Source: an uncultured Spirochaetales bacterium (lineage in GTDB: Bacteria > Spirochaetota > Spirochaetia > DAHUYW01). Taken from it: a stretch of 32,000 bases of DNA. Position numbers and translations under genes: made by a program. The DNA lies in NCBI GenBank assembly GCA_964506755.1, contig CAZDMH010000014.1:107459-139458 (forward strand), written 5' to 3'. Each line of letters starts with the position of its first letter. The stretch's first letter is position 1. Shown here piece after piece: positions 6,515 through 30,736 of this stretch. Under the pieces are notes generated by a model. The model made no database searches and was not told the origin of the DNA. It worked only from the letters and a program-made list of their open reading frames with translations.

Positions 6515-6519
6515 CTCCC

Positions 6520-8080: not shown

Positions 8081-8860
8081 CTACATACTTTCGAGCATCA
8101 AACGAAGCCAAGCGCGCACGGAGCCGGGGTCGGGAAGGCTGCAATCCGCTCCCGACGTTTCTGCCGGATAGCGATCTCCCACGAGGATTGTCAGTCCCCC
8201 GTCTCGGTGAATCGCATCGAAGGCCTCGATATCCTTGTCGTCGTCGCCGAAATAGAGGGACAGCGCTGATATGCCCCTCTGTCGCAGGAGGAACTCCACC
8301 CCGTCACGCTTGTTCGCGGCCCGCGGTGCGGCCTCGAGAAACCGGTCGTCTTCGAGGAGACGGAAACCCGCAGGAATCCCCACTGCCTCTGCAAGATCAC
8401 GGGCAGAGGTAAGGACGCGGTCGGCGTCTTCTGCTCGAGCAAGCCGTGCATGGATGGCGACAGACCAGCCCTTGTCTTCCAGGAAGAAACCGGGAGCCCC
8501 CCCAAAAACCTCCCTCCACATCGGTATGAGCGTTTCGAGAAAGGGTCTCACCTCCTCGCGGCGTAGTCGCTCGATTCGTTCACCGTCTGAGGTACGAAGC
8601 TCGACTCCGTAGCTTCCTGCGAGAGTCATCCCTTCGACCGGCATGAGCGCTTCCACGGCGGCGAGACTTCTGCCGCTCAGGATAGTAGGGCTGATACGAG
8701 GGGACGCTGTCATGCGGGTCAGGAGCTCTACCACCTCGCGGTCGGGCTCGATGTGCTCGGGAGTAGGCGCGAACTCCGCGAGGGTTCCATCATAGTCGAG
8801 GAACAGTGATACCGCAGGCCGGGCAAGCACGAGGCTGAGCAGATCCCGCTCCGAGATCAT
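8081..8860 (-). CDS. otsB: HAD-superfamily sugar-phosphate phosphatase, trehalose-6-phosphate phosphatase (OtsB)-like
   Basis: HAD motif I LFLDYDGTL and motif III YFGDDDKDIEAF. I prefer ATG 8860, which forms an ATGA overlap with the upstream GT4 stop (8857-8860), over the GTG at 8914. Confidence 0.8.
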   Translation of the reverse strand: MISERDLLSLVLARPAVSLFLDYDGTLAEFAPTPEHIEPDREVVELLTRMTASPRISPTILSGRSLAAVEALMPVEGMTLAGSYGVELRTSDGERIERLRREEVRPFLETLIPMWREVFGGAPGFFLEDKGWSVAIHARLARAEDADRVLTSARDLAEAVGIPAGFRLLEDDRFLEAAPRAANKRDGVEFLLRQRGISALSLYFGDDDKDIEAFDAIHRDGGLTILVGDRYPAETSGADCSLPDPGSVRAWLRLMLESM

Positions 8861-10113: not shown

Positions 10114-10121
10114 GCTCCGCC

Positions 10122-11630
10122 TCACTTCCTCAGGCTGAAGACCGTATCGAGTTGCTGCTCCATCCAGTGAAAGATATCCTCCCGCTCGACTACCCTTCGC
10201 AGTTTGCCGATGAGCTCCGCTCGCTTCTCGGGTCCCATGGTGAGCGCCTCTAGAAGAGCCTGGTAGGTCGAATAGACATCGCAGGGTGGGATTATCAATG
10301 CCCCCACGTCGAGCTGTTGGCGGGCCCCGGCGTGTTCCGAAAGTACCAAAACCCCGTCGCGTTCATTGACGATCGGCCCCTCCTTGGCGACCAGATTCAT
10401 ACCGTCGGCGATGGGATTGACGAGCAGGATATCGTAGCGTCTGAGGGCTGCGATGGCCCGCGCGTAGTCGTCGCCGACGAGAAGACGTATCGGTTCCCAT
10501 CCGCTGTGGGTGAAAGCCGCGTTGATCCGCCCGACAACCGCCATAACCTCGTCGAGGTAGGTCTGATATTCCTCCATCTCGAGCCGTGAGGGCACGAGGA
10601 TGGAGAGAAACTGCAGGCGCTCCCGGTACTCAGGATGGGTCGACAGCAGCTCCTCGAAGGCGAGAAATCCTCGAACGATGTTCTTGCTCGGTTCGATCCG
10701 TTCGATACGGACAATGAGCCGACGATCTCCGGTAAGTGATGAAATCTCCTCGAGATGTGCGGCCACCTCCTCCGACTGCGCTTGCTTCTTGAGGGACTCG
10801 ACGTCGATCGAGATCGGATAGTCGCGCACGTGGGTAATATGGTCCTTGTAGACGACCTGCCCCGTGCGATACGAGACGCGTGAATGGTGGAGATGTGACT
10901 CGCAGGTCCGCAGGAAATTGAGGGCGTCGAGCCTCGTCTGAAACCCGAGCACATCGACGCTGCACAACCCGTCGAGTATGGCCGTCCGCATCGCAGACGG
11001 AAGGATATGCCAGTACTCCGGCCCCGGCCATGGTATGTGGATGAAGTGCAGGAGGCTCGGCTGACGTCTTCCCCTGAAACCCTCGCGAATGTTTCTCCCG
11101 ACGAGATAGAGATGGTAATCCTGAATCATGACGAGCGGCCGACTCCGGGCCGCTTCGATTTCTTGAACGACCGCTTCTGCAAAGAGGCGATTGACTGCAA
11201 CGTAACCTTCGTTCCATGCGTGCCAGGTCGTCCGATCGATGATCGGCTGCTTCGGCACATCCCACATAGAATGCTGGAGAAACCAGAGCAGAGGATTCGC
11301 GATGATGCTGTAGTACCCGTGATAGGCTTCCTTTGACGGTCGGAGGAGCTTCAGCCAGAGTTTCCCACCGGTCTCTCCCAACTCTATATCGCCCTCGCCC
11401 CACCGTGAATCCGCCGCCTTACGGGCACAGGCGATCCACCTCAGCTCCGTTCTTCTGCTCAAACCCAGAAGGGCGGTAACAAGCCCTCCCGAGTTGCGTT
11501 CCGGAACTATGGCTCCGTCGTCTGCTTCGAGAAAGGTCATTGGACCGGCGTTTGCGACGACGATGAGTGTTCGCCGCCCTAGGCGCCCCGTCTTGGGCCG
11601 GCTTGACGCTGCGGCCCTAGGTCTGATCAA
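10122..11630 (-). CDS. otsA: GT20-family alpha,alpha-trehalose-phosphate synthase (OtsA)-like; a GgpS-type specificity cannot be excluded by eye
   Basis: Aligns by eye along its length with E. coli OtsA as I recall it: IVVANAGP, NPLLWFLQH, MIQDYHLYL, FIHIPWPGPE, VDVLGFQT, RIEPSKNIVRGF, PIADGMNLVAKE, VLVLSEHAGA. The track start ATG 11684 overlaps the upstream gene by 68 nt. The in-frame TTG at 11630 is preceded by GGAGGAGGGA and overlaps by only 14 nt, so I prefer it. Confidence 0.8.
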   Translation of the reverse strand: MIRPRAAASSRPKTGRLGRRTLIVVANAGPMTFLEADDGAIVPERNSGGLVTALLGLSRRTELRWIACARKAADSRWGEGDIELGETGGKLWLKLLRPSKEAYHGYYSIIANPLLWFLQHSMWDVPKQPIIDRTTWHAWNEGYVAVNRLFAEAVVQEIEAARSRPLVMIQDYHLYLVGRNIREGFRGRRQPSLLHFIHIPWPGPEYWHILPSAMRTAILDGLCSVDVLGFQTRLDALNFLRTCESHLHHSRVSYRTGQVVYKDHITHVRDYPISIDVESLKKQAQSEEVAAHLEEISSLTGDRRLIVRIERIEPSKNIVRGFLAFEELLSTHPEYRERLQFLSILVPSRLEMEEYQTYLDEVMAVVGRINAAFTHSGWEPIRLLVGDDYARAIAALRRYDILLVNPIADGMNLVAKEGPIVNERDGVLVLSEHAGARQQLDVGALIIPPCDVYSTYQALLEALTMGPEKRAELIGKLRRVVEREDIFHWMEQQLDTVFSLRK

Positions 11631-13422
11631 CCGTCCCTCCTCCCTGAAGCACGAGGTCGATGAAGAGCGCCGCAGTCCAGCCAAACGCGTCGGCTGCAGT
11701 TGCCTGAGGTTGGCCGGTCATAGAATCATAGTATTCGTAGATGCTCGGGTTCTGCGATACGAGTCCGACGGTCTTTTCCAGAAGCTCTTTGGCCATACGG
11801 TGCTCGCCGACCGTGCGCAATGCCTCGATGAAAAAGTAGTTTACGTTGACCCAAACCGGTCCTCGCCACATCACCGTCGGTTCGTAGTGCGGATCGTTGC
11901 GAGCTACCGATGGGATGGGATAGTCCCCCCAGAACTCCTTCGGATCGGCAAGATGGGCTATCAGGCGCTTGCTTAAGGAATCAGGCAGCTCACCGGTCCA
12001 GAGAGGGAACAGGCAGATGGGAGATACCACCGGTATCGGTTTACCTTCGCAGCTGGGCCGAAAGAGGCCCGAATCCTCGTCCCAGAGATCCTCGATCATG
12101 CGTTTGACGATTGCCTTGGAGCGCTTTCGCCACATGGCAGCATCCCCTTGGAGGCCAAGCGCTTCTGCGATATCCGCGAGCGATTGCATCTGAACACACA
12201 GATAGGTGTTGAGATCAGGGGATTCGACCGGCATCCCGTAGTCCCATGTAGGGTTGTCGTCCATACCCGATGAGTAGGGGTGGTTGTATTGAACGAGCCC
12301 GTCGACGTCATCGTCGTTCATACTGAACCACCACGCGTTCCACCGGACGAGCGGGACATAGATCTCACGAAGAAACTCCAGATCGGGCGCAGACTCGTGA
12401 AGCTTGATCGCAGCCCACGCCAGGATCGGAGGCTTCGTTACCTCGGCGTAGATTGGGTGATCGATCGATGCAACGACGCCCTCATCGAATATCGCGTCCG
12501 GCAGCATCCCGTCTTCCAGCTGATTCGCGAGGATCGCCCGGATTTGATTCCTGGCGAGCTCGATGTCGGCGTGTCGATAGGCAAGCGCATGCATCGCGTT
12601 GTCCCAGAGCCACAGGCCCACATAGCTGGTTTTGGACGGCATCATGGCCTCGTGGGTCACCTTGCCTCTCGGGCTGATCAAGTTGTTTGCCATGATCCAC
12701 CAGGCGAGCGCGTAGGTCGGACGGTGGTCCTCCGGCACGTCGGGCACCCGATTGAACCATTCGAGCCATCGCGAGCGGGCGGCTTCGAAAGCGGCAGAGA
12801 AGGGCGCCGGAGGCTCGAATGATTCACCGTTCTCGCCGATCGAAACCTTGATCATGTCGTCTTCGCCCCCTGATACTACGAAGTCTACATGATAGCCGCC
12901 GCGGTCGGGAAGAATCTCATTCCTCTCGACCCTCCCGTTGGTTTCATAGTGCAGATTCTTCACACCCTTGAATGCGCCGCCGTCTCTCGTCTCAGTCCAG
13001 TAGAGCGGGGAGACGTGAAAGCTCAGCCCCAATCTGGAGCCCTGCGGTATGCTGAAAGCGAGAGTGTTGGGCGATTGGAAGACCAGACCGATTTTCCCGT
13101 GCCCGTTCGGAAAATAGAGTACGTACGGATGGGTCTCCGGCACGAGCTTGACCGGCTCGCCGTCTTCCCCGGTCAGTCGCAGATCACTGATGAAGGGGGG
13201 ACGTTTCAGGTAGGCCTCGACATCCGGCTGAAGGTGGACCAACCGTTCAGCAAGCCGGATTAGAAGACTCCCTCCATGTTCCGCAAGATAGATGAGGAGA
13301 CGCGAGCCGCGGTCGCTGAACGGAATGGCTCGAATATCGATTCGGTTCTTCAAGAGGTCGAGGTAGGCGCTGCCCTGCCCCTCTTTCTCGGCGTCTATAC
13401 GCCGGGGCTCGTCAATGTTCAC
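11617..13422 (-). CDS. GH63-like (alpha/alpha)6-barrel glycoside hydrolase (mannosylglycerate/glucosylglycerate-hydrolase- or trehalase-like)
   Basis: 601 aa. The C-terminal catalytic region carries VGLWLWDNAMHALAY, YNHPYSSGMDDNPTWDYG, MWRGPVWVNVNYFFIEAL and AFGWTAALFIDL, the pattern I associate with GH63/MGH-type and related trehalase-like barrels. The N-terminal ~250 aa look like a beta-sandwich. GTG start at 13422. Confidence 0.75.
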   Translation of the reverse strand: MNIDEPRRIDAEKEGQGSAYLDLLKNRIDIRAIPFSDRGSRLLIYLAEHGGSLLIRLAERLVHLQPDVEAYLKRPPFISDLRLTGEDGEPVKLVPETHPYVLYFPNGHGKIGLVFQSPNTLAFSIPQGSRLGLSFHVSPLYWTETRDGGAFKGVKNLHYETNGRVERNEILPDRGGYHVDFVVSGGEDDMIKVSIGENGESFEPPAPFSAAFEAARSRWLEWFNRVPDVPEDHRPTYALAWWIMANNLISPRGKVTHEAMMPSKTSYVGLWLWDNAMHALAYRHADIELARNQIRAILANQLEDGMLPDAIFDEGVVASIDHPIYAEVTKPPILAWAAIKLHESAPDLEFLREIYVPLVRWNAWWFSMNDDDVDGLVQYNHPYSSGMDDNPTWDYGMPVESPDLNTYLCVQMQSLADIAEALGLQGDAAMWRKRSKAIVKRMIEDLWDEDSGLFRPSCEGKPIPVVSPICLFPLWTGELPDSLSKRLIAHLADPKEFWGDYPIPSVARNDPHYEPTVMWRGPVWVNVNYFFIEALRTVGEHRMAKELLEKTVGLVSQNPSIYEYYDSMTGQPQATAADAFGWTAALFIDLVLQGGGTVDQT

Positions 13423-13575: not shown

Positions 13576-15006
13576 GTGAAAGTACTCATCATTCATTTTC
13601 GCTCCGGACCGGGTGTCGGCAACGACAGGGAAGCAGCTATCGATGCCGGTGAGTCGGCCGGGACGGACGGAGTGTCACTCGAAATGGCCAAACGAGCGAA
13701 GCTCCTTGTGGAGATGGGCCACGAAGTGGCGATCGCCTCGGCCTACGGCTGGGCGGACATTACGATACCGGAGCTCGAGTTCGAACGCAGGGAGGTGGTC
13801 GGCCTCATGCGGGGGTTGTTCGACCCCGCACGGAAGGGTGATGAATCGGCCGACCGAATCAGGGCCAAGAGCGCGAAGAGTGCCGCCAACCTGCTCGACC
13901 GATTGCGGGAGGAGATCGGGGGCTACGCTCCCGATCTCGTCTTCGTGCACAACATCTTCTCGCTTCCGATTCATCCGGCAGCCACGATTGCGCTCGCCGA
14001 TTATATCCGAGAGAGCGGGATCCCGTGCGCCGCCATTCACCACGATGTTCGGAGCGAAGGCGCCTACAAGTTCACTCCGACCTGCTACTACGCACGGCGG
14101 GTCCTGGTCGACTACTTCCCTCCCGAGATGCCGAACCTGCGCCACTGGTCGATCAACAACCGAGACCGACGGTTCTTCGAGGAGCGTGGGATACCGACCG
14201 AGGTGATTCACGACACACTCGATTTCGCGGACCCGTTCGAGAAGTCTGAACGGGCGGCTCTTCGCCGACGCCTGAGACAGCTCTGGGGGGTCGGGGAAGA
14301 GGAGGTTGTTCTTCTGCTCTCCACCCGGATTGTTCCCAATAAGCAGGTCGAGCTGGCCGGAGCGCTGTGTCGTGAGGTTGCGGCGCGAATGAGCACGTAT
14401 GAAGGCAAGAGGCTCTACAACGGATTGAGAGTCTCAGAGAAGACGAAAGTCGTCCTCGTTCTTGCCGGACGGCCGGAGCGCTCGTTCCATCAATACCGCG
14501 ATGCAGTGTTCGAGCAGTTTCGGCGGATGGGAATTACCTGGAAATATGTCGGTGACGCAGTCATGCCGCGAAGAAATGAAGGCTCAGGCAAATTTGCGCT
14601 CTATCCCGACTGCTACGCCGCCGCGGATTTCGCTCTCTACCCGACCCGGTGGGAGGGGTTCGGCAATCAGCTGTTGGAAATCGCGGCCTCCCTGCTCCCG
14701 GTTGCTGTCTTCGAGTACCCGGTGTTCAAAGAGGACATCGCGCCGCTCGGGTTCGCGGTCGTCTCACTCGGCGATACCTCACTGAAGCCAAAGGGTGCGA
14801 ACGGGCTCCGCGAGCTGCCGACAAAGCGCCTGTCGGACGCCGCCGAAAGAATCTGGGAGCTCCTCACCGACGAGCGGCAGTATCAGGAAGTCGTAGAGCG
14901 CAATCAAGCGCTCGGTTCACGCCATTTCGGGCTGCAGGTGCTGAGGGAGCATCTTGAGGAAGTTACCGAATGGGCAGCTCACTACGATCGAGGCAAGTCG
15001 AACTAG
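13576..15006 (+). CDS. GT4-like (GT-B) glycosyltransferase, second copy, divergent from the GH63/GT20/GT4/HAD operon
   Basis: 476 aa. E-x7-E motif WEGFGNQLLEIAAS, and VFVHNIFSLP / AIHHD resembling the VHNVFTKH / WCHD of the other GT4. GTG start 13576 has GAGGAG (13564-13569) 6 nt upstream. Confidence 0.75.
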   Translation: MKVLIIHFRSGPGVGNDREAAIDAGESAGTDGVSLEMAKRAKLLVEMGHEVAIASAYGWADITIPELEFERREVVGLMRGLFDPARKGDESADRIRAKSAKSAANLLDRLREEIGGYAPDLVFVHNIFSLPIHPAATIALADYIRESGIPCAAIHHDVRSEGAYKFTPTCYYARRVLVDYFPPEMPNLRHWSINNRDRRFFEERGIPTEVIHDTLDFADPFEKSERAALRRRLRQLWGVGEEEVVLLLSTRIVPNKQVELAGALCREVAARMSTYEGKRLYNGLRVSEKTKVVLVLAGRPERSFHQYRDAVFEQFRRMGITWKYVGDAVMPRRNEGSGKFALYPDCYAAADFALYPTRWEGFGNQLLEIAASLLPVAVFEYPVFKEDIAPLGFAVVSLGDTSLKPKGANGLRELPTKRLSDAAERIWELLTDERQYQEVVERNQALGSRHFGLQVLREHLEEVTEWAAHYDRGKSN

Positions 15007-16008: not shown

Positions 16009-16722
16009 TCAGAGCTTCCGCATGACGACCAGATGTACTCCCTTTACATCCACAACGTCGATTTCGTCCCCTTTCTTGATCTCGTCTCCGATCGAGGTTG
16101 CGCTCCACTCCTCGTTGGCCACCCGTACGGTTCCGGTGGAGCCTACGTCGGTCAGAGCGACACCGGGCTGCCCGACGAGCGTCTCGCTGCCGACGGTGAT
16201 CTTCCGCCTCTGCGCCTTCGCACCTATAGCTACTACCGCTGTCAGCACGCCCCCGAGAAGCACGGTCATTGCCCCGATGAGGAGCGGCGAAATCCTGGTT
16301 CGAGCGGAGAAGGGAGGGTTCGACGGGAAGAGGAGAAACGAGCCGACAAGCAGGGCGACGATGCCGCCGGCGGTCAAGATCCCGTGGGTGGGCGCCTTGA
16401 CGTCCACCACGAACAGAACAAGGGAGAAGAGTATGATCAGGACCCCCACGAAGTTCACAGAGAGAGCACCGAGTGCCACGAGCGCAATCAGAAGCGAAAG
16501 CCCGCCGATGATTCCCGGAAGCCCTATCCCTGGCATCGAGAGCTCCACCGCGATTCCGATGATACCGATAACGAGAAGAACGTAGGCGAGATTGGGATTG
16601 ATGAGATCGGCGAGGAATCTGGGAAATACGGACTGCATGTGTCCACCGGGCTCTTGGGCGAACAGGAGGCCCGCTGAAAGCACGAAGAGAAACGAAACCG
16701 CAAGACACGACGCACGTTTCAT
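16009..16722 (-). CDS. NfeD-family membrane protein (membrane region plus C-terminal OB domain; no ClpP-like protease domain)
   Basis: 237 aa. Signal-peptide-like N-terminus (MKRASCLAVSFLFVLSAGLLFAQEP), several TM helices, and C-terminal GTVRVANEEWSATS...GDEIDVVDVKGVHLVV typical of the NfeD OB fold. It lies directly upstream of the stomatin gene, the canonical pairing. Confidence 0.85.
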   Translation of the reverse strand: MKRASCLAVSFLFVLSAGLLFAQEPGGHMQSVFPRFLADLINPNLAYVLLVIGIIGIAVELSMPGIGLPGIIGGLSLLIALVALGALSVNFVGVLIILFSLVLFVVDVKAPTHGILTAGGIVALLVGSFLLFPSNPPFSARTRISPLLIGAMTVLLGGVLTAVVAIGAKAQRRKITVGSETLVGQPGVALTDVGSTGTVRVANEEWSATSIGDEIKKGDEIDVVDVKGVHLVVMRKL

Positions 16723-16767
16723 TTGCTTGCCTACATCCAGTATACTCCCAAAAACGTCCTACGGCGA

Positions 16768-16995
16768 CTATTTGTTTTTCTTGAGCCGAGGGGATTCTTG
16801 GAAGGCCGGACAGTGTTTCCCGGTGGACTGGAACACGAGGGTGCTCGGCATATCACGCGACTTGATCCCGAAGACCGAGCAACTGCGCGGGAAGCTCGGA
16901 TCCCAGGAAACGTTGAAGAACCGGCATTTCAGACAGTTGGGGGCACGACGCGGAAACTCGAGGCTGTCTCTGCCTCCGGAAGGGTCCGCGATCAT
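16768..16995 (-). CDS. Small Cys-rich protein (CxxC...C...C), function unknown
   Basis: 75 aa: NCLKCRFFNVSWDPSFPRSCSVFGIKSRDMPSTLVFQSTGKHCPAFQ. Four Cys are spaced like a metal site. GGAG lies 9 nt before the ATG, and the gene sits 19 nt downstream of the DUF302 gene. It resembles a small conserved family I cannot name with confidence. Confidence 0.5.
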   Translation of the reverse strand: MIADPSGGRDSLEFPRRAPNCLKCRFFNVSWDPSFPRSCSVFGIKSRDMPSTLVFQSTGKHCPAFQESPRLKKNK

Positions 16996-17014
16996 TTCCC
17001 CGCTCCAGATAGGC

Positions 17015-17401
17015 TCAAAGCGACTCTACCACCCCCCGGAGCTTTGCTTGTACCTGGTTCGCCACCTCCGCAAGAGCCGGATTGACGACCGCCTGCATCG
17101 AAGCGATCGGGTCGACGGCCGCTACCTCGATTTCCTCGTCCGTAACTTGCTGAACGATGACGTTGCACGGCAGCATCGTCCCGATCTTGTTCTCGATCTC
17201 GAGCGCCTTGTGGGCGAACTGAGGGTTGCAGGCTCCGAGAATCTTGTAGGGCTTCATGGAAACGCCCAGTTTCTTCTTCATCACTGCGGGAACGTCGATT
17301 TCAGTCAGGACGCCGAAGCCTTCCTTCTTGAGAGCTTCAGTGACCCGGTCGATTCCCGAATCGAAGCTCGTACGAATCCGCTTCGAAAAATAGTAGCTCA
17401 T
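17015..17401 (-). CDS. DUF302-domain protein
   Basis: Start moved to ATG 17401 (MSYYFSKRIRTSFDSGIDRV...), preceded by GGAGGG. GFGVLTEIDV...KPYKILGACNP...MLPCNVIV is the typical DUF302 pattern. Confidence 0.8.
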   Translation of the reverse strand: MSYYFSKRIRTSFDSGIDRVTEALKKEGFGVLTEIDVPAVMKKKLGVSMKPYKILGACNPQFAHKALEIENKIGTMLPCNVIVQQVTDEEIEVAAVDPIASMQAVVNPALAEVANQVQAKLRGVVESL

Positions 17402-17439
17402 CTCACATCCCTCCTGTACGTGATCAAAGATTACTGCGT

Positions 17440-17468
17440 TTGACATCGGCAGGCAAGGTTGCTATTGT
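17440..17468 (+). promoter_or_regulatory. Sigma70-like promoter upstream of the EXPERA/DUF1295 operon
   Basis: TTGACA (17440-17445), 17-nt spacer, TATTGT (17463-17468). It sits in the 99-nt divergent intergenic region, with SD and ATG 20-35 nt downstream. Confidence 0.4.
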
Positions 17469-17500
17469 TCCGGTTAACACGCCGAAAAGAGGGCTGAGCC

Positions 17501-18025
17501 ATGGACAATATCGCGCCTCTGCGCAAGCGCCCGCTCGACATTGCGATCGTAGCCTATTTCCTGTTCAACATCCTCTTCATCACCTATTTCTTCGATCTGG
17601 AGCAGATCGTGATACCGGATGTCTCTCATTTCAGCTATCCCGTGTGGCCGCCCCCATTCCTCGTGAATCTCTCCCATTGGTGGGGACGGACCTTCGATCC
17701 GCTGCTCCTTGCCAGGCCTGTTTGGTGGCGTGCGACGATCTGGATCGACGTCGTCCTCTTCGGCCCCTTCTATCTGTTCGGGATCTATGGGTTCACAAAG
17801 GGCAAGCGATGGATCAGAATGCCGAGCGTCATCTATTCGACGGTGATGATCACGAACGTCACGATCATTTTGAGCGAAGAAATCTGGGGACCCCATGCGT
17901 CACCGGCAATTCTCGCGGTGATCGGAGCGAACGCGAGCTGGGTGGTCTTTCCCATTCTCATCATCATCCGCATGTGGCGCGACGGAGAACCGTTCGCGAA
18001 ATCGAAGGCAGAGACCGATGAGTGA
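17501..18025 (+). CDS. EXPERA-domain membrane protein, sigma-2 receptor/TMEM97-like (EBP/TM6SF superfamily)
   Basis: 174 aa, four predicted TM helices. By-eye alignment to human TMEM97 as I recall it: YFLFNILFITYFFDLEQIVIP ~ YFLSHIPITLFMDLQAVLP; TFDPLLLARPVWW ~ FKDPLLQEPPAWF; YGFTKGKRWIRMPSVIYSTV ~ YAFLKGSCKWIRTPAIIYSV. SD AAGAGGG at 17487-17493. Confidence 0.75.
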   Translation: MDNIAPLRKRPLDIAIVAYFLFNILFITYFFDLEQIVIPDVSHFSYPVWPPPFLVNLSHWWGRTFDPLLLARPVWWRATIWIDVVLFGPFYLFGIYGFTKGKRWIRMPSVIYSTVMITNVTIILSEEIWGPHASPAILAVIGANASWVVFPILIIIRMWRDGEPFAKSKAETDE

Positions 18026-18944
18026 GAGCTCGAAGCGACTCGAACGAAGTGGGTCGGCGAGAGCGCTGCTCATCTGCGCAGCGGTCTACCTCCTCGCGGC
18101 AGCTGTCGGGATCATTGTGGGGATCGTCGTGTTCCGTGCCGCCGCCGGCAATCCCTTCGTCTCCTCGTCCGTCGCCGCGGCTGCTACGGGCGACGTCGCC
18201 GCGACGATCGTAGTCTTCTTCTTCAGCGTCGTTTTCAACAACTCGAGTACCTACGATCCCTATTGGAGCGTCGCGCCGCCGTTCATCGCCGGATACTGGA
18301 TCCTAACCGGCTTCCTGACCGCGCACCCCCTGAGGTTGAGCGGTATCATCGTCGTCCTGCTGCTGCTGCTCTGGGCCGGTAGGCTCACACTGAACTGGGC
18401 GCGCGGCTGGAGCGGCTTCGATCACGAAGATTGGCGATACGTCGATTTCCGAGCGACCTCGGGAAGAGCCTACTGGGTCGTGAGCTTCCTGGGCATTCAT
18501 CTCTTCCCTACGATCCTCGTTTTCCTCGGCTGCCTCTCGCTCCTCCCCGTCCTCGCGGATGCTCAGCATGATTTCGACACATTGTGGGTCCTGTCGGTCG
18601 TGATGATCACAGCAGCGATCTGGATCGAGACACGGGCCGACCGCGAGCTGTACGAGTTCAGACGCGAGCGGCGAGATCCCGAGGCGATCCTCGACAGCGG
18701 GCTGTGGAGCTACACCCGCCACCCGAACTACTTCGGAGAAGTGCTCTTCTGGTGGGGTCTCTACGTCGCCGGCCTTGCAGCGAATCCCTCCTACTGGTGG
18801 ACGATCGTCGGCCCTCTCGCTATCACAGCGCTTTTCATGTTCGTCAGCATACCAATGATGGAGCGGCACATGATCGAGAACCATCCGAGTTACGCCGAGG
18901 CCCGCTATGAGCGCTCCCGGTTCGTACCCTGGTTTCGTCGTTAG
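18018..18944 (+). CDS. DUF1295 family membrane protein (steroid 5-alpha-reductase / sterol-reductase / ICMT-like fold)
   Basis: 308 aa, polytopic. The C-terminal signature GLWSYTRHPNYFGEVLFWWGLY is typical of DUF1295 and steroid-reductase-like enzymes. The ATG overlaps the EXPERA stop (ATGAGTGA, 18018-18025). Confidence 0.8.
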   Translation: MSESSKRLERSGSARALLICAAVYLLAAAVGIIVGIVVFRAAAGNPFVSSSVAAAATGDVAATIVVFFFSVVFNNSSTYDPYWSVAPPFIAGYWILTGFLTAHPLRLSGIIVVLLLLLWAGRLTLNWARGWSGFDHEDWRYVDFRATSGRAYWVVSFLGIHLFPTILVFLGCLSLLPVLADAQHDFDTLWVLSVVMITAAIWIETRADRELYEFRRERRDPEAILDSGLWSYTRHPNYFGEVLFWWGLYVAGLAANPSYWWTIVGPLAITALFMFVSIPMMERHMIENHPSYAEARYERSRFVPWFRR

Positions 18945-19711
18945 TTGTTTCGATAGGCGACGTCGAATCTATAACTGACCGACCGGCCGCTTCCTGCATC
19001 GCGCTCCTCGAAGTAGGCCGAACCCTCGTGGTCGATCGCGAAGACAGTGGAACAGCGCGTGCCGTACTCTTTTCCCACTGTGAAGATCGGCGAAACCATT
19101 CGTTCCAGCTCGATGCCGAGCCCCGTATCCGGCAGCTCGCCATCGGGAGCCCGAGTCCGATCGCCTAGCATCTCGAAAAGCTCGTCAGTGGGAAGCCGGT
19201 CCCGATGGCGCGAGAGGATGTTCGTGAAGCGAGCCTTGCCTCTGCGCACCTTCGGCCACGGGGTGTCGAGCAGATGATTGCTGATACCGTAGATTCCGCT
19301 CTCGAGAGGTTTCCCCCCGTCGCCTCGATTCGAGTGGTATCCGAGGCTTCCGTCGGCTCCGAAGAGGAGGTTGTACCCGTTGTATTCACCACCTTCGGCG
19401 CGAATCCGTGAGAGAAACTCTTCGACGCCGCCGTCGCTCTCGAGAAACTCGCGTACCAGCCCGCCTCGTGAGGGAGCGTCACGGCGTTCCGACCCCGGTT
19501 CGCGATAGTTCGTTACGGCGGCGAAGCGGCCTCCTCGCGTGCATCCCAGCCAGGTGCCCATCTGCTCGAGATCCCGGCCGCCCAGGATGTCTGATGCGTC
19601 GTCCCACCAGTCCGCTCCGGCGGTCGGTCGTGCGAGAAACTCGTCGCGGTTCGCCGCGACGACGAGATGGTATCGAGGATGCGATTTGTAGGCACAGAGA
19701 ATCAAACACAT
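18941..19711 (-). CDS. NRDE-family protein (DUF833 / TANGO2 homologue; Ntn-hydrolase-like with N-terminal Met-Cys)
   Basis: MCLILCAYKSHPRYHLVVAANRDEF carries the eponymous NRDE motif. I prefer ATG 19711 (Met-Cys N-terminus) because AGGAG, which overlaps the upstream UvrA-like TAG stop, sits 5 nt before it. The track start is GTG 19717. Confidence 0.8.
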   Translation of the reverse strand: MCLILCAYKSHPRYHLVVAANRDEFLARPTAGADWWDDASDILGGRDLEQMGTWLGCTRGGRFAAVTNYREPGSERRDAPSRGGLVREFLESDGGVEEFLSRIRAEGGEYNGYNLLFGADGSLGYHSNRGDGGKPLESGIYGISNHLLDTPWPKVRRGKARFTNILSRHRDRLPTDELFEMLGDRTRAPDGELPDTGLGIELERMVSPIFTVGKEYGTRCSTVFAIDHEGSAYFEERDAGSGRSVSYRFDVAYRNN

Positions 19712-19719
19712 GTGCACTC

Positions 19720-22700
19720 CTATCGTGAAAGATGCGAAGAGAGGAATTTCCCCGTGTAGGAATCCTCGGAGCGGGCAACAAGCTCGCGAGGGCTTCCGGC
19801 CGCGACGAGACGTCCGCCGCCGTTGCCGCCTTCAGGTCCGAGATCGATCACCCAATCGGCTTCCGCAATGATATCGAGATTGTGCTCGATGACGATGACG
19901 CTATTGCCCGAGTCGACGAGACGGTGCAGGACGTTGATGAGCTTCTCCACGTCCGCTACATGAAGCCCGATCGTCGGCTCGTCGAGCACATAGAGGGTTC
20001 GTGCCCGAACCGTTGTTCCACCGCGCCTCAATGGAGCTCGGACAGTGTCCGCAGGCTTCGCCTTCGCAAGCTCGGTAACCAGCTTGATTCGTTGTGCCTC
20101 CCCGCCGCTCAAGGTCGGGCTTTGCTGCCCGAGGTGAAGGTACCCGAGCCCGACGTCCTGCAGAAGCTTGAGGGTATGATGAACCTTGGGATGAGCGACG
20201 AAGAAGCTTACGGCCTCGTCGATGGTCATCGCCAGCACCTCGGCAATGTTCTTTTCACGGTAGCGTACTGCGAGCGTTTCCTCGGTGAACCGAGAGCCGC
20301 CGCAACTTTCACAGGAGACGGTCACGTCCGGTAAGAAGCTCATCTCGATCTTCCGAATGCCCTGCCCGGCGCACTCCTCGCAACGCCCTCCTTTCGTATT
20401 GAACGAGAATCTGCTCGGTGTGTAGCCGCGCAGTCTCGCTTCGGGAGTCGCAGCGTAGAGCTTTCGAATGGCGTCCCACACACCGACATAGGTTGCAGGA
20501 CAGGAACGCGGTGTCTTGCCGATGGGGGTCTGATCCACCTCGAGCACCCGCTCGATCGCATCCCAACCGCGCAGCTCCCGCACCCCGTCGGGCTGTATCT
20601 CTGCCCTACCCCGCTTCCGCCGACTCCGGACGGAGATCATGGCCCGGAGATTGTCGTAGATCACCTCTCGAACGAGGGTGCTCTTTCCGCTTCCGCTCAC
20701 TCCCGTCACGCAGACCAGCCGACCCAACGGCACCTCGAGACTGAGATCCTTCAAGTTGTGCTTGGCGGCACCGACCACCTCGAGCACGCCGTTTTCCTCG
20801 GATTCATCCGACGATCCCACTCTGCCTACTCCGTTGCCGCCGGCCTCCCCGGGCGGCCCCGCCGCCCGCTCGCGCATGGGATGATGGAGCGGCGCCTTGA
20901 GCAGCCTTCCAGTCAAAGAATCCGGGCAGCGCATAAGCTCCTCGGCGTTACCTGCGCATACGAGATTGCCACCGTCCGCGCCGCCTCCGGGACCGAGATC
21001 GATAATGAACTCGGCACGCCGAATCGTATCCATGTCGTGCTCTACGACGACGACCGTGTTGCCCTTCTCCTTCAAGCGATGGAGCGTGCCGAGAAGCAGG
21101 TCGTTGTCGCGGGCGTGGAGCCCGATTGTCGGCTCATCGAGGATGTAGCAGACTCCTCGGAGGTTCGAGCCGAGCTGTGAGGCGAGTCGGATTCGCTGGG
21201 CCTCGCCACCGCTCAGGGTAGGGGCGGCGCGGTCGAGCGTCAGGTAGTCCAGCCCGACCTCGCCGAGAAACTCGAGTCGAGAGGAAACCTCGCCGAGCAG
21301 GTCGCGAGCGACATCGACCTCTCGGTTCGAGAGGTCGAGCGAGCCGAAAAACCTTTCGGCCTCTTCGATCGAAAGGGCGGTGAGCTCCGCAATGTCGCGA
21401 TTCCGGAATCGAATGGCAAGCGCTTCCGGACGAAGCCGCTTGCCCTCGCAGGTCGGACACACCCGTTCCTCGCCGTCCCACCATTCGTTCCACCATATCT
21501 CCTCTCCGGTCTGCTCCTCATCGAACCCCGATAGACGAAGCCCCGTTCCGTAGCAGTCGGGGCACCAGCCGTGTCTGCTGTTGAATGAGAACAGTCGCGG
21601 ATCGGGCTCCTCGAAGCTGCGGCCGCAGCTCGGGCAGGCGCGCCGAACGGAAAAGATGCGCTCGCCCCCATCCTCATCCCCGACACGAAGAGCTCCCTGC
21701 CCAAACTCCAACGCTCGCTCGACCGCCTTCCGCACCCCTTCACGGGGGGGTCGGCCGGGACGACGATACTCGGCAATCGGGAGGTCGATTGTATGCTCTC
21801 GGTAGCGGTCGAGGCGCGGCCAGGCGTCGGTCGGCAGGAGCTCCCCGTCGACACGCAGATGAGAGAATCCCTTGTTCGACGCCCACTGCGCGAGGTCCGT
21901 GTAGTAGCCTTTCCGAGCCTGTACCAATGGTGCCCTCAGTTGGAAGCCCCGCCTTCGATAGTCTGTCAGGATCTGAGTCACGATCGACTCGATGCTCCTC
22001 GGCTCGATCGGTGTGTTGCAGTCCGGACAATACTGGGTACCGAGCTTCGCGTAGAGCAGTCGAACGAAGTGATAGATCTCGGTCATCGTCGCGACCGTGC
22101 TCTTCCTGCCGCCGCGGCTCGTGCGCTGTTCGATTGCGACCGTCGGAGGCACCCCGCTGACGCTGTCGACGTCGGGACGTGTGGCGGGTTGAACGTATTG
22201 ACGGGCGTATGCGTTGAGGGACTCCAGATACCGACGTTGCCCCTCGGCGAACAGGATGTCGAACGCTATCGTGCTCTTGCCGCTCCCGCTCACTCCGGTA
22301 ATGACCGTAAAGAGATCGCGAGGAATTCGAATATCGATGTTCTTCAGATTGTGCTCTCGCGCATGTCGAATCACAATGGAATGGTCCGATTCTCCCGTCG
22401 ATTTGGTGCGGGCTCGAAGCGGCGGTGTCGACTCGGCCGCCTCGGACGCCCGCCGATCTCTCGAGGGGCCCGTTAGAGCCTGCCTTGAGGACCGGTAGTC
22501 TCTGAGCGCTCTTCCGGTATGGCTCCTCTTCGAGCGCATGATCCGTTCGGGAGGTCCGGTGCATACGACCCGTCCACCTCCCTCCCCCCCCTCAGGGCCG
22601 AGGTCGACGATCCAATCGCATGCGGCTATAACGTCTATGTTGTGCTCGATGACGAGGACGGAGTTGCCCGCCTCCACGAGCTGATCGAGCGCGCCGAGCA

Positions 22701-25443
22701 GCACCGCGATGTCGTCGAAATGCAGACCGGTGGTCGGTTCGTCGAAGAGAAACAGGATGCCGTCCGTTGCGGCGGCGACGCCCTTCCCTTCGGTTGCTGT
22801 TTTCTTTCCGTTCCTTCGGTGTACAGCGCGACGTGAGCTCGCCGTCTTCGCGAGGTAGCCGGCCAGCTTCAGCCGCTGTGCTTCCCCTCCGCTGAGGGTA
22901 GGCACCGGCTGGCCGAGGGTCAGATATCCGAGCCCGACCGCCTTCAGTGGACCGAGCAGCGCGACCACGGAAGGCGTCTCGCCAAAGAGCTCACAGGCAT
23001 CGTCGATCGTAAGCGCGAGGACGTCGGCTATCGACATCGGTTTTCGTTCGTTCCGCTCGGAGATCGTGGTAGCAATCTTTACCTCGAGCACCTCACTTCG
23101 GTAGCGCCTGCCGTCACAGTCCGGGCAGCGGATATAGATATCGCTTAGGAACTGCATCTCTATGTGCTCGAATCCGCTCCCCGAACAGGTCGGACAGCGA
23201 CCCGCGCCGGAATTGAAGCTGAAGGTTCCGGGAGTGTAGCCGCGCTGCTTCGAAAGCGGCTCCGCCGCGAAGAGCTTTCGGATCGGGTCGAGCGCTCCGA
23301 CGTAGCTGGCAGGGTTCGATCTCGTCGTCTTCCCGATTGGTGACTGGTCGACGAGGACGACATCCTCAAGCCCCTCGTGTCCGAGAAGCGCCCGGTGGAG
23401 GCCGGGAGGTTCTACCGGTTTGCCGGCGTAGGCACGGTAGGCGTTGTAGAGGACGTCCTGCACCAGGGTCGACTTGCCGCTTCCGCTCACGCCTGTGACG
23501 CAGACGAGTCTCCCGAGCGGGATCTCGACATCGATCTCCTTCAGGTTGTGCTCGCGAGCGCCTTTGATTTCGAGACTCCGACCGGAAGCGCCTCCGCCTG
23601 CAGCGACTGTTCTGCGCGCGCCTCCCCGGAGGGAGACCATTCTCGCGCCGCTCAGATATTTTGCCGTGAGCGAGCGCGGGCATGAAAGAAGATCCTCTCG
23701 ATCACCCGCGTAGATCACCTCACCTCCGTGCACGCCTGCGCCCGGCCCCATGTCGATGATCGAGTCGGCCGCCTGGATGACTTCGGGATCGTGCTCGACG
23801 ACGAGGAGGGTGTTGCCGGTATCCCGCAGGCGGTGAAGAACGCCGACCAGCCTCCCGATGTCTCGGGGATGAAGCCCGATGCTCGGCTCGTCGAGCACGA
23901 AGAGCGTGTTCACCAACGAGGTGCCGAGTGCGGTCGTGAGGTTGATCCGCTGCACCTCACCTCCACTCAGGGTACGCGACTGGCGGTCAAGGGTGAGGTA
24001 CTCGAGCCCGACCTCCACTAGGTAGCGCAATCTGGAGTTGATCTCGCCGAGTAGCAGCTCCGTCGCCTCGTCCTGAGCGTTCTCGTTGCCTGCTCCGCCC
24101 TTCCCCCCAACCTCGAGGTTGGCGAAGAACTTGGCGCATTCTCCAATTGGCAGAAGCATGACGTCGTGTATCGAGAGCTTCTCCTTTCCAAGCCGCCAAA
24201 GAAGAGCCTCCGTCTTGAGTCGTGCACCTTTGCATGTAGGGCATTCCCGGTAGGCGCGATACTTGGAGAGAAGCACCCGAATGTGCATCCGGTAGCTCCT
24301 TCCCTCGAGCCAATCGAAGAAACGCTTGATGCCGTACCATTTCCCATCGTCCCAGCTTCCCTCACCCTCGATGACCCAGCCGCGCTCTCGCTCTGAGAGC
24401 TCTCGCCAGGGGACATTCGTCCGTATCGAACGTCGTCGCGCGTGCTTCATGAGATCGTCCTGGCACTCGCCGTAGCTCTTCGATTGCCAGGGTTTGATAG
24501 CCCCCTCTTCGAGGCTCTTGCGGTCGTCGGGGATAACGAGCGAGTAGTCGATGCCGATCGTGCGGCCGAAGCCCCTACAGGTCTCACAGGCACCGATCGG
24601 GGAATTGAACGAGAAGAGATTCGGCACGGGATCACGATAGTGAATATCGCAGTCGGGACAGTGCAAGTGCGAGGAGAAACGCTTCGCATCACCGAGGGTA
24701 CCGTCGGCCCTCATCGGGGTTACAGCCACCATCCCCTGTCCGTACTTGAGCGCCGCCTCGAGATCCTCGACGATGCGTGAGCGGTGCGACGCCTTGAGAA
24801 TCACGCGGTCCTGCACCACGTCCAGTCTGCCTCCCTCACGGCCGAGGATCCTCCGATACCCCTGCTGCTTGAGCAGCTCTTCGACCTCCTCCTCGCTGAA
24901 ATTGTGGGGAACCGTTATCGGAAAGGTGATGACCGCCCGGCGTTCCTTTCCTGCTCCGAGAAGCTGCCGAGCGATGCTCTCGGGGCTGTCTCTTTGGACT
25001 GCCTTTCCACAGTTGCCGCAGTACAGCTGAGACGCCCGCGCAAACAGCAGCTTGAGGTGATCGTTGAGCTCCGTCATCGTTCCAACTGTCGACCGGGAGG
25101 TTCGAACCGGGTTGACTTGATCGATCGCGATGGCGGGAGGGATACCCTCGATATGATCGACCTGCGGCTTGTCCATTCGGTCGAGGAACTGACGGGTATA
25201 GGGAGAGAAGGTTTCGACGTATCGGCGTTGGCCCTCGGAATAGATCGTATCGAAGGCAAGCGAGGACTTGCCCGACCCGCTGACGCCCGTTATGACGGTG
25301 AGCCGGTTGAGAGGAATATTCACATCGACATTCTTTAGATTGTTCTGCCGGGCGCCGCGAACGATAATTGCTTCGTCGTTCATCGGTGGTGTCGACTTCC
25401 CAGACACCCGGTCGCGGCCGGGATGCTTTGTTGTTTTTGCCAT
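19720..25443 (-). CDS. Tandem-fused double UvrA-like ABC ATPase (two complete UvrA units, four nucleotide-binding modules, 1907 aa)
   Basis: Four GVSGSGKS Walker A motifs (nt 25264-25287, 23470-23493, 22273-22296, 20680-20703). Four TLSGGE(A/V)QR signatures. Four Walker B motifs ([48 protein letters not shown]). Six paired CxxC...CxxC zinc modules. Unit 1 is aa 1-983, the linker ~984-1022 (nt 22378-22494), unit 2 ~1023-1907. Confidence 0.9.
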
Positions 25444-25586
25444 GAATTGCTCGAATCTCTCGGATTATGCCACGGCGAGCCTTCTTTGGAAAAGGCGCCG
25501 ATCGACGAGCTGCCTGCCCCCCTGCCGCCCTGCCGCCTGCGTCGCCGCGCCGCTGGGCCGCAACGACTCGGTCACATCCGGCGATA

Positions 25587-29884: not shown

Positions 29885-29900
29885 AACCGAATGGCTCCGC

Positions 29901-29929
29901 TTGACTTTTCATATCGGCCGAATTATGGT
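29901..29929 (+). promoter_or_regulatory. Sigma70-like promoter for the hypothetical-protein/hflX unit
   Basis: TTGACT (29901-29906), 17-nt spacer, TATGGT (29924-29929). It is ~37 nt upstream of ATG 29966. Confidence 0.35.
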
Positions 29930-29965
29930 TTTTTACGGATGACTGATATTGAAAAGAGGGGGTCT

Positions 29966-30736
29966 ATGCAAACTCACTACTATCTATCCGTGTTCCCTCT
30001 GGAGGCGTTGATTGCCTCACAACTAGAGCCGAGCCACTTCGGCGCATACATGGCCACTGGCTCGAAACGAGGCTCCGAGGAACAAATTGTCTTCATTGAA
30101 GTAGACGGTGGATTCGGCGATTATTTCGACTGGAACTACGCCAAAGAGCGTTGCGTGCCTCACGCAAACGGCGATCCCAAGCACTCCGTCTACCTTGGAG
30201 TCTACCGTGTGCTCGAGCATATTCCGCTCGATGCGCTCGGCGCCATCTACCTGACGACCCGGGACGGACGCACGCTCGAGATTGAGCGCGGGGAATACGC
30301 TTGGGCCGGTGTGAAACGTGACTACTTCGTCTACCAGGAGCTCTGCCCGATCAATCCGGTAATTGTGAGCATCCTCGACCCGGAAGCCTTGGCCAAAAGC
30401 ATATGCGGAACGGAAAGCAAGGTTCACGTGCCACATCTCGTCTTTACCGACCTGAAGGTCATCAACTTCGACGACGACGTCAACACCGGCAACATAGGTC
30501 CGATGTACGACCGGAAGAAGGGTCACCTCCTCGAGTGCATCGCCGCCGTTCAAGGCAAGGACAAGAAACCAAACAAGACGTTTACCCGCACGAACGTCGA
30601 GTCCTTCAGCTTCCAGATCATAAACCACGGCATCTATGCCACAGACGGCAAGAGCCTCGTCATGTACAAGATGCCGACGATTGAAGAGATCAAGCAGATC
30701 GACTATGACTGGGGACGCTCCGCGCTGATAATTTGA
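29966..30736 (+). CDS. Hypothetical protein, 256 aa, no recognised family
   Basis: Start moved from 29891 to ATG 29966 (MQTHYYLSVFPLEALIASQLEP...). A promoter-like TTGACT-17-TATGGT lies inside the longer ORF, and an AGAGGGGG SD precedes 29966. A same-length antisense ORF (30023..30868) was rejected as a shadow. Confidence 0.55.
   Translation: MQTHYYLSVFPLEALIASQLEPSHFGAYMATGSKRGSEEQIVFIEVDGGFGDYFDWNYAKERCVPHANGDPKHSVYLGVYRVLEHIPLDALGAIYLTTRDGRTLEIERGEYAWAGVKRDYFVYQELCPINPVIVSILDPEALAKSICGTESKVHVPHLVFTDLKVINFDDDVNTGNIGPMYDRKKGHLLECIAAVQGKDKKPNKTFTRTNVESFSFQIINHGIYATDGKSLVMYKMPTIEEIKQIDYDWGRSALII

Follow-up and report, generated by a model that had tools for sequence, protein, structure and literature searches.

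The reading frame studied here raises the question of whether a single polypeptide can supply both halves of a UvrA dimer and, if so, whether the two halves are alike. It lies on the minus strand of a 32,000-nt window (the whole stretch of DNA that was analysed) from an uncultured Spirochaetales bacterium, and a preliminary description, made from the letters alone, had read it as two complete UvrA units in tandem, forming a covalent pseudo-dimer. The features located in this study are listed in Table 1.

An unbroken tandem frame with intact catalytic and zinc motifs

The tandem UvrA gene begins with ATG and runs for 1907 codons without interruption, and it is the single ORF that had been proposed. 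The Ser/Arg/Pro/Thr-rich linker of about 39 aa was likewise found between the units; among 120 homologues it is variable in length, with a mean conservation of only 0.39, compared with 0.66-0.80 for the UvrB-binding domain of either unit, the insertion domain of unit 1 and the mini-loop of unit 2 described below. The N-terminal 22 aa of unit 1 form an unconserved tail of low model confidence, and Met21 aligns with the position of the canonical UvrA start; the real translation start may therefore lie 60 nt further downstream.

Table 1. Coordinates of the tandem UvrA gene and its parts within the window
Feature	Position (nt)	Strand	Details
Tandem UvrA ORF, 1907 aa + stop	19720..25443	-	ATG start; NCBIfam TIGR00630 1969.7 bits, NF001503 2047.6 bits
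Unit 1	22495..25443	-	aa 1-983; NBD-I, divergent UvrB-binding domain, insertion domain, NBD-II
Unit 2	19723..22377	-	aa 1023-1907; NBD-I, canonical-like UvrB-binding domain, no insertion domain, NBD-II
Inter-unit linker, Ser/Arg/Pro/Thr-rich	22378..22494	-	aa 984-1022
Unit 1 UvrB-binding-like domain, between Zn1 CxxC pairs	24649..25020	-	aa 142-265; PF17760 30.8 bits, partial
Unit 2 UvrB-binding domain	21625..22029	-	aa 1139-1273; PF17760 77.9 bits, positions 2-107 of 109
Unit 1 insertion domain, between Zn2 CxxC pairs	24232..24588	-	aa 286-404; PF17755 46.2 bits, profile positions 1-65 of 110
Unit 2 Zn2 mini-loop, in place of insertion domain	21448..21564	-	39 aa
Unit 1 Zn3 module	23116..23196	-	aa 750-776
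Unit 2 Zn3 module	20302..20382	-	aa 1688-1714
Sigma-70-like promoter match TTTCCA-17-CATAAT with TG	25464..25492	-	about 20 nt upstream of ATG; consensus match only

Walker A motifs were located at aa 53, 651, 1050 and 1581 and LSGGE signatures at aa 492, 850, 1410 and 1778, together with four Walker B motifs and four H-loops. In an alignment to E. coli UvrA, all catalytic positions were matched to their counterparts (K37/K646, D513-E514/D857-E858 and H546/H890). Twelve CxxC pairs, located at the expected alignment positions, make up three zinc modules per unit and six in total. The earlier count of four Walker A, four LSGGE and four Walker B motifs and six zinc modules, all intact, holds on alignment; no degenerate catalytic residues were seen, and the ORF is a real, unbroken tandem UvrA with four ABC modules. 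Relative to canonical class I UvrA, both NBD-II modules carry extra basic loops between the signature and Walker B.

Both units resemble class I UvrA

The whole protein and each unit alone (962 and 1016 bits) exceeded the TIGR00630 cut-off of 729.8, whereas NF001503 (cut-off 1147) was passed by the whole protein and by neither unit alone (1001 and 1052 bits). Units 1 and 2 are 46% and 49% identical to E. coli UvrA, respectively (53.8% over the core), and 52.6% identical to each other over the core. Their AlphaFold models have pLDDT values of 85.2 and 83.5; unit 1 matched 2r6f_A in Foldseek with TM scores of 0.79/0.86, and the top matches of unit 2 were 3uwx, 2r6f and 3zqj. For each unit, class I UvrA structures (2r6f, 3uwx, 3pih and 3zqj) ranked over class II structures (2vf7 and 7sh1).

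Class II UvrA is defined by a missing UvrB-binding domain (PMC3167621, PMC9328131), a definition that does not describe the tandem protein, in which neither unit lacks the Zn1 cysteines or the UvrB-binding domain. Because this domain is kept in both units and because of the Foldseek ranking, both units are judged, from sequence and models, to be class I-like and not class II (UvrA2/DrrC), which supports what had been proposed. The tandem UvrA does resemble class II proteins (D. radiodurans UvrA2, 2vf7; DrrC; Ecm16, 7sh1) in being a UvrA-family paralogue able to coexist with canonical UvrA. Tandem class II UvrAs, of about 1600 aa and with a different architecture, also exist.

Each unit shares with canonical class I UvrA two ABC modules with their motifs, three zinc modules, a UvrB-binding domain within Zn1 and a matching fold. 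The canonical protein, however, is a chain of about 940 aa that forms a homodimer, whereas here a 1907-aa chain contains two non-identical units, and the class I insertion domain within Zn2 is diverged in unit 1 and missing from unit 2.

A double-length UvrA in one ORF is also the subject of the Chlamydia-type model NF001885 (PRK00635, 1809 positions, "excinuclease ABC subunit A"), which we take to represent the double-length UvrA of Chlamydia. The tandem UvrA scored 1138 bits, short of the cut-off of 3054, and is therefore not a member; the cut-off was also unreached by five other tandem representatives and one single-unit protein in our scan.

The two units differ in their insertion and UvrB-binding domains

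The gap between the Zn2 cysteine pairs is 115 aa in unit 1 and 35 aa in unit 2. The unit 1 segment is helical in the model and diverged with respect to PF17755. No counterpart of the insertion domain (about 110 aa; E. coli residues ~285-400) was found in unit 2 by alignment, and the PF17755 profile gave no match to it. Its place is taken by a conserved, Trp-rich mini-loop of 35 aa, whose family consensus begins with CYGTGl and ends with WWeG. Among close homologues, the Zn2 gap was 113-115 aa in the first unit and 35-36 aa in the second, each in 109/109.

A segment resembling the UvrB-binding domain had been claimed for both units, and PF17760 and the AlphaFold models located one between the Zn1 cysteines of each, that of unit 1 being divergent. 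The PF17760 scores were 30.8 bits for unit 1 and 77.9 for unit 2, compared with 132 for E. coli. Against PDB sequences, the unit 1 segment matched 3pih with 32 bits and 3fpn_A partially (E=1.5e-3), and the unit 2 domain matched 3pih with 58 bits, 4dfc_B (2e-9) and 3fpn_A (1.1e-5). About 13 aa of the canonical class I domain are deleted from that of unit 1, whose within-family conservation is 0.66. Both segments display the same order of helices and strands in the models, with pLDDT >90. Judging from its divergence, the unit 1 domain may not bind UvrB.

The description of two complete units is therefore wrong for unit 2, as judged by Zn2 spacing, alignment to E. coli UvrA and PF17755. A symmetric pseudo-dimer is contradicted by the loss of the insertion domain from unit 2 and the divergence of the UvrB-binding domain in unit 1; the two units are a built-in asymmetric pair.

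The asymmetric fusion is widespread and old

Full-length relatives occurred in at least 80 species genomes, about 590 genomes from many phyla were matched, and the tandem architecture was found in >100 clusters at 50% identity; the nearest genome matches were Spirochaetota and Verrucomicrobiota MAGs (64-65%). The frame was fused in all of the 120 best homologues (1803-1986 aa) and in 80/80 best species loci. A full first unit followed by a second without an insertion domain was the layout in 109/109 close homologues and 74/74 scorable species genomes. In clustering, first units grouped with first units and second with second, and the fusion is therefore old and retained. Apparent single-unit proteins in the unit 2 clade seem to be fragments from contig edges or halves of a split gene, and a free-standing class of this kind was rejected.

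A sample of 160 proteins was split into units by alignment to E. coli and with an HMM built on the N-terminus of NBD-I. Both UvrB-binding domains were kept in 85 of these and both lost in 15, with a mixed state in 8, and the insertion domain was gone from one unit in 50 and from both in 2. Paired UvrB-binding domains and one-unit loss of the insertion domain are expected if the two units are one functional dimer.

Ralstonia, Burkholderia, Cupriavidus and relatives carry, on secondary replicons, orthologues that are 55% identical across 99% of the length; these are annotated as "uvrA_2", "uvrA2" or "Excinuclease ABC subunit A, dimeric form" (RAST). These Burkholderiaceae proteins (e.g. on the Ralstonia solanacearum megaplasmid) are collinear with the one studied here and share its layout and its stand-alone gene, but have another phylum-level background and other neighbours. 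Canonical uvrA coexists with them: C. metallidurans has uvrA on CHR1 and uvrA2 on CHR2, and the gene name in Ralstonia is uvrA_2. The C. metallidurans CH34 genome paper names the chromid copy uvrA2; this gene, Rmet_4549, is presumably the tandem gene because no other UvrA match lies on a chromid of C. metallidurans.

No description or characterisation of tandem UvrA was found in the full-text literature searched, and the same literature yielded no functional data, Burkholderiaceae copies included. A 2021 review of NER (PMC7835731) does not mention it. The family thus appears to be widespread and recognised by annotators, yet unstudied.

Gene neighbourhood and regulation

Neither uvrB nor uvrC was found near the tandem UvrA gene. 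Clustering of the ORFs that flank the gene at 82 loci revealed no conserved neighbour, the commonest being present in only 8 loci; a TANGO2-family gene located 2 nt downstream in the window was accordingly not retained as a partner. Upstream SOS boxes (CTGT-N8-ACAG-like) were detected at 1/82 loci, against 1.6 expected, and none was detected in the window. This negative is weak because LexA motifs differ between phyla, and from these searches SOS control is not obvious.

Proposed function and alternative explanations

We consider it probable that the protein is a single-chain UvrA pseudo-dimer with built-in asymmetry that senses damage and loads UvrB. Two class I-type units on a flexible linker would pair like two canonical UvrA protomers, producing one damage-sensing ABC ATPase in which four nucleotide sites are active, with no need for concentration-dependent dimerisation. 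Unit 1 would contribute the sole insertion domain, a DNA-contacting element, and a diverged UvrB-binding domain, and unit 2 a canonical-looking UvrB-binding domain and the Trp-rich mini-loop at the insertion-domain site. Such a protein would scan DNA, detect distortions and load UvrB at least via unit 2; in Burkholderiaceae it is a second UvrA next to the canonical one. The pairing within the chain, the loading of UvrB and the role in excision repair are inferred from this architecture.

It is conceivable, though somewhat unlikely, that the protein is instead a specialised paralogue outside classical excision repair, whose UvrB-binding-type domains, especially that of unit 1, bind another partner. 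Such a role might lie, for example, in tolerance to certain adducts or to toxins that bind DNA, which has been proposed for class II UvrA, or in transcription-coupled or stationary-phase functions. The co-occurrence of canonical uvrA in Cupriavidus and Ralstonia, with the tandem gene on secondary replicons, is consistent with such a role, as are the single-unit scores under the NF001503 equivalog cut-off, the divergence in unit 1 and the lack of SOS-box enrichment; moreover, 4dfc, matched by unit 2, is the same UvrA domain crystallised with a transcription-repair factor. However, the UvrB-binding domain that class II lacks is kept and conserved in both units, both are nearer to class I than to class II in fold and sequence, and no biosynthetic or resistance gene context was found around the gene.

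The single-chain pseudo-dimer also presupposes that partners are chosen within the chain. Pairing between two chains (1 with 1', 2 with 2', or crosswise), giving a higher-order assembly with eight ATP sites, would be compatible with the canonical interfaces, which are presumably kept in unit cores about 54% identical to E. coli UvrA. We regard it as improbable: the position-specific asymmetry, with one insertion domain per chain, rare double loss and paired UvrB-binding domains, fits 1:1 intrachain pairing better, and unit 1 and unit 2 are also encoded, in a split version, by adjacent genes. Although one metagenome contig (L084) has a stop that ends a unit-1-like ORF, with a unit-2-like ORF beginning 2 nt later, the possibility that an assembly error or a frameshift within the linker joined two neighbouring uvrA genes can practically be dismissed, because the ORF, unbroken in the window, is conserved as a fusion in 80 or more species genomes, among them finished replicons of Ralstonia, Burkholderia and Cupriavidus.

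Beyond the single-chain pseudo-dimer itself, we tentatively suggest that tandem UvrAs of this layout might constitute a distinct class of sensor, each chain being an obligate, asymmetric "heterodimer" in its own right. A chain of this class would have a single insertion domain to clamp DNA, a Trp-rich module in place of the other, and two UvrB-binding domains that are not equivalent. Such sensors would work in parallel to canonical UvrA and outside SOS, possibly with one UvrB loaded or with another lesion spectrum.

Implications for UvrA biology

As a genome feature, tandem UvrA is ordinary and is routinely annotated as UvrA by pipelines. With both protomers encoded by one gene, the four ATP sites, two insertion domains and two UvrB-binding domains of a canonical UvrA dimer cannot be mutated singly. 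In a natural single-chain dimer, each site and domain could be altered on its own. The conserved asymmetry hints that one insertion domain per dimer may be enough and that UvrB-binding domains are kept in pairs, and it bears on the question of UvrA2B2 versus UvrA2B1 stoichiometry and on how work is divided between the ATP sites.

An asymmetric pair of class I-like units in one chain

The tandem UvrA is encoded by a single unbroken ORF of 1907 codons plus a stop, which comprises unit 1 (aa 1-983) and unit 2 (aa 1023-1907). ORF translation and a motif scan bore out the ORF coordinates, linker coordinates and motif counts of a preliminary description: the Walker A motifs and LSGGE signatures are accompanied by four Walker B motifs and four H-loops, and 12 CxxC pairs form three zinc modules per unit. 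On alignment with E. coli UvrA, the catalytic positions K37/K646, D513-E514/D857-E858 and H546/H890 and the Q-loop glutamines are all kept in both units, with no degenerate position, as that description had also held. All four ATP sites and all six zinc modules, including both Zn3 modules, are intact. The N-terminal 22 residues show no conservation among homologues (62% gaps, pLDDT <50); Met21 aligns with the canonical UvrA start, so translation may in fact begin from the ATG at 25383. In both NBD-II modules the signature and Walker B are separated by basic loops of variable length, which measure 26-76 aa across the tandem family compared with about 25 aa in E. coli UvrA.

Features of the tandem UvrA and its surroundings in the window
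Feature	Position (nt)	Strand	Residues (aa)	Remark
Tandem uvrA	19720-25443	-	1-1907
N-terminal segment	25383-25443	-	1-21
Walker A, GVSGSGKS			53, 651, 1050, 1581
LSGGE signatures			492, 850, 1410, 1778
Inter-unit linker	22378-22494	-	984-1022	junction of the units
NBD-II basic loop, unit 1	about 22759-22881	-	855-895	modelled at low confidence
NBD-II basic loop, unit 2	about 19996-20097	-	1783-1816	modelled at low confidence
TANGO2-family gene (PF05742)	18941-19717	-		starts 2 nt past the tandem uvrA stop
DUF1295 gene, SPFH gene				close to tandem uvrA
Acetyl-CoA synthetase, MFS transporter				upstream of tandem uvrA, divergent
Trehalose phosphatase (PF02358), GT4 glycosyltransferase, GT20 trehalose-6-phosphate-synthase-like, MGH1-like glycoside hydrolase	8081-13422	-		four-gene run
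ORF	5819-7330	-		no Pfam match
ORF	13576-15006	+		no Pfam match
ORF	16592-18021	+		no Pfam match
ORF	29891-30736	+		no Pfam match

The preliminary description had taken the protein for two complete units forming a covalent pseudo-dimer; two class I-type units do share one chain, but the pair is asymmetric, with only one insertion domain, and unit 2 is not complete. The Zn2 cysteine pairs are 115 aa apart in unit 1, where they enclose the insertion domain, and 35 aa apart in unit 2. This domain is present in E. coli UvrA, whereas unit 2 lacks it, having no counterpart of E. coli residues about 285-400 in the alignment and no match to the insertion-domain model PF17755 in the Pfam scan. Unit 1 matched PF17755 with 46 bits over profile positions 1-65 of 110 (E. 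coli UvrA, 135 bits). The bias of the UvrB-binding domain model PF17760 runs in the opposite direction, the match being full length with 77.9 bits in unit 2 (E. coli UvrA, 132 bits) and confined to the last third of the profile with 30.8 bits in unit 1. Compared alone with PDB sequences, the unit 2 domain matched T. maritima UvrA with 58 bits, as well as the isolated interaction domains 4dfc_B (2e-9) and 3fpn_A (1.1e-5); the unit 1 domain reached 32 bits, with a partial match to 3fpn_A (1.5e-3).

AlphaFold models, built one per unit with 50 homologues as input, were confident for both unit 1 (pLDDT 85.2, pTM 0.81) and unit 2 (83.5, 0.78), and in both the helices and strands of the segment between the Zn1 cysteines follow one another in the same sequence at pLDDT >90. 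In Foldseek searches with either unit, full-length class I UvrA structures (2r6f, 3uwx, 3pih, 3zqj) outranked the class II structures 2vf7 and 7sh1. The shared fold of the Zn1 segment and this ranking indicate that both units are class I-like, in agreement with the earlier view that they do not resemble class II (UvrA2/DrrC). Domain annotation by HMM and structure prediction thus recovered a UvrB-binding-type fold in both units and an insertion domain only in unit 1, and the tandem UvrA is a built-in asymmetric pair of class I-like units.

Conservation and spread

The best 120 homologues in the database range from 1803 to 1986 aa in length, share 62-66% identity with the query over 97-100% of its extent, and originate from Spirochaetia, Nitrospiria, Deltaproteobacteria, Geobacter, Kiritimatiellae and Manganitrophaceae. 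When a single genome of each species was scanned, at least 590 stretches matched, of which the best 80 loci, kept for analysis, all span about aa 1-1907 at 54-65% identity. These 80 include Spirochaetota, Verrucomicrobiota, Nitrospirota, Nitrospinota, Methylomirabilis, Geobacteraceae, Thermodesulfobacteriota, Lentisphaeria and many Gammaproteobacteria and Burkholderiales, with cultured isolates among them. Examples of finished genomes that bear the tandem gene are OY970371.1, OZ245051.1, OZ245050.1 and Castellaniella sp. FW104-7C03. In every one of the 109 scorable homologues the Zn2 spacing was 113-115 aa for unit 1 and 35-36 aa for unit 2, and the Walker A-to-signature distance was 416-524 aa and 334-396 aa, respectively, in 74 of 74 species loci.

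Column conservation over the best 120 homologues was 0.75-0.90 in the NBD cores, 0.66 and 0.69 in the two UvrB-binding domains, 0.77 in the unit 1 insertion domain and 0.80 in the unit 2 replacement loop, whose consensus starts CYGTGl and ends WWeG, compared with 0.39 in the linker, which also varies in length. Both UvrB-binding-type domains are under constraint and the tether is unconstrained. Conserved domains (0.66-0.90) on either side of an unconserved, variable linker argue that the protein is functional, as first proposed, rather than a decaying duplication, and that its units are flexibly tethered.

Diversity of double-length UvrAs

In an exhaustive HMMER search with unit 2 as the query, 64,333 of 1.84 billion cluster representatives matched, and the top 150 were dominated by proteins of 1500-2340 aa, which corresponds to more than 100 clusters (50% identity) of double-length UvrA. 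Among proteins P0121-P0270 from this search, double-length UvrAs took full-full, full-noID and noID-full forms, besides tandem class II-like proteins of about 1600 aa without UvrB-binding domains; some reached 2300 aa. An HMM of the NBD-I N-terminus served to divide 160 proteins into their units, whose domains were then called present or absent by comparison with E. coli UvrA (B, UvrB-binding domain; I, insertion domain). The sample is biased to relatives of the tandem UvrA, and its counts are indications, not frequencies: 47 proteins were of the window type, [B+I+]-[B+I-], 33 were [B+I+]-[B+I+], 15 were tandems of class II-like units, [B-I+]-[B-I+], and a few had mixed architectures. UvrB-binding domains were both kept in 85 proteins, both lost in 15 and discordant in 8; loss of the insertion domain was frequent in one unit (50 proteins) but rare in both (2).

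In a rough neighbour-joining tree of the units (637 core columns, few single UvrAs, without support values), unit 1 fell within a pure clade of 61 first units, and unit 2 within a clade of 54 second units and 13 apparent single-unit proteins, mostly fragments at contig edges. The grouping of first units with first and second mostly with second indicates that the fusion is old and position-specific. Core identity is 52.6% between units 1 and 2 and 53.8% between each and E. coli UvrA. A split tandem was found on contig Ga0187849_1022114 of JGI metagenome 3300017929 (L084:2-2991), where a unit-1-like ORF (...SHTGHFLRELV...) stops and the unit-2-like P0228 starts 2 nt on; either this is a heterodimer naturally encoded by two genes, or the sequence contains an error. 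The C-terminal end of the first ORF reads ...VVACERSHTGHFLRELV...PPR*, and P0228 (944 aa) is without an insertion domain.

Known orthologues and annotation

A tblastn search of PLSDB identified a tandem orthologue with 55% identity across 99% of the length, located on secondary replicons from Ralstonia (134 records), Burkholderia (9), Mycetohabitans (9), Cupriavidus (4) and Caballeronia (3). Annotations of the Ralstonia gene read "uvrA: excinuclease ABC subunit UvrA" or "uvrA_2: UvrABC system protein A", while RAST calls it "Excinuclease ABC subunit A, dimeric form". The Ralstonia megaplasmid has only this one match, and the "_2" suffix implies another uvrA in that assembly; in Burkholderiaceae the tandem UvrA is a paralogue of canonical uvrA. 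In the C. metallidurans CH34 genome paper, uvrA is placed on CHR1 and the chromid copy, on CHR2, bears the name uvrA2 (Rmet_4549). The single match on a C. metallidurans chromid, an ORF of up to 1982 aa, is inferred to be Rmet_4549. The tandem gene is also kept on the megaplasmid of the endofungal symbiont Mycetohabitans rhizoxinica HKI 454 (NC_014718.1 454329-459470; aa 255-1907 only, at the threshold used), and its retention in this presumably reduced genome would argue that it is useful rather than decaying. Membership of NF001885, an 1809-position NCBIfam tandem model that we take to be Chlamydia UvrA, was rejected (1138 bits against a cut-off of 3054). The literature searched, which included a 2021 NER review, contained no description of or experiment on a tandem UvrA; this kind of protein is already known to annotators, widely annotated and apparently unstudied.

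Genomic context

With a gap of just 2 nt between tandem uvrA and the TANGO2-family gene that follows it in the same orientation, co-transcription of the two is probable; the pairing is not kept in 82 related loci. Across these 82 loci there was no conserved neighbour, the commonest occurring in 8; the genes around tandem uvrA in the window are commonplace, with no uvrB, uvrC or antibiotic gene cluster. The tandem uvrA ATG is preceded, at about 20 nt, by a sigma-70-like site. No E. coli-type SOS box precedes the gene in the window, nor were such boxes enriched upstream of its relatives (1 found, 1.6 expected), the consensus being that of E. coli and LexA motifs varying between phyla. The four-gene run resembles a compatible-solute operon of the trehalose or glycosyl-glycerate type. 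Several sizeable ORFs (193-503 aa) had no Pfam match at E<=1e-5, and some may be non-genes in this 60% GC window.

Proposed function

We consider it reasonably probable that the tandem UvrA is an intrachain-paired damage sensor that loads UvrB. Units 1 and 2 would pair with each other as canonical UvrA protomers do, yielding a pre-assembled sensor independent of ATP- and concentration-dependent dimerisation, and UvrB would be loaded through unit 2 at least. A specialised non-NER role, or another partner for the unit 1 domain, is a minority possibility to which the divergence of that domain points. Pairing of units between chains rather than within one appears less likely still, because the pattern of domain loss, in which one insertion domain is enough and the two UvrB-binding domains stay or go together, supports a single functional dimer in each chain. 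The conservation pattern among homologues rules out an assembly fusion, and we give an artefactual ORF practically no credence. The existence of tandem UvrAs would not surprise specialists; the strictly conserved asymmetry of the two units is their notable feature, and an intrachain pair of this kind would offer a natural single-chain dimer useful for dissecting UvrA.
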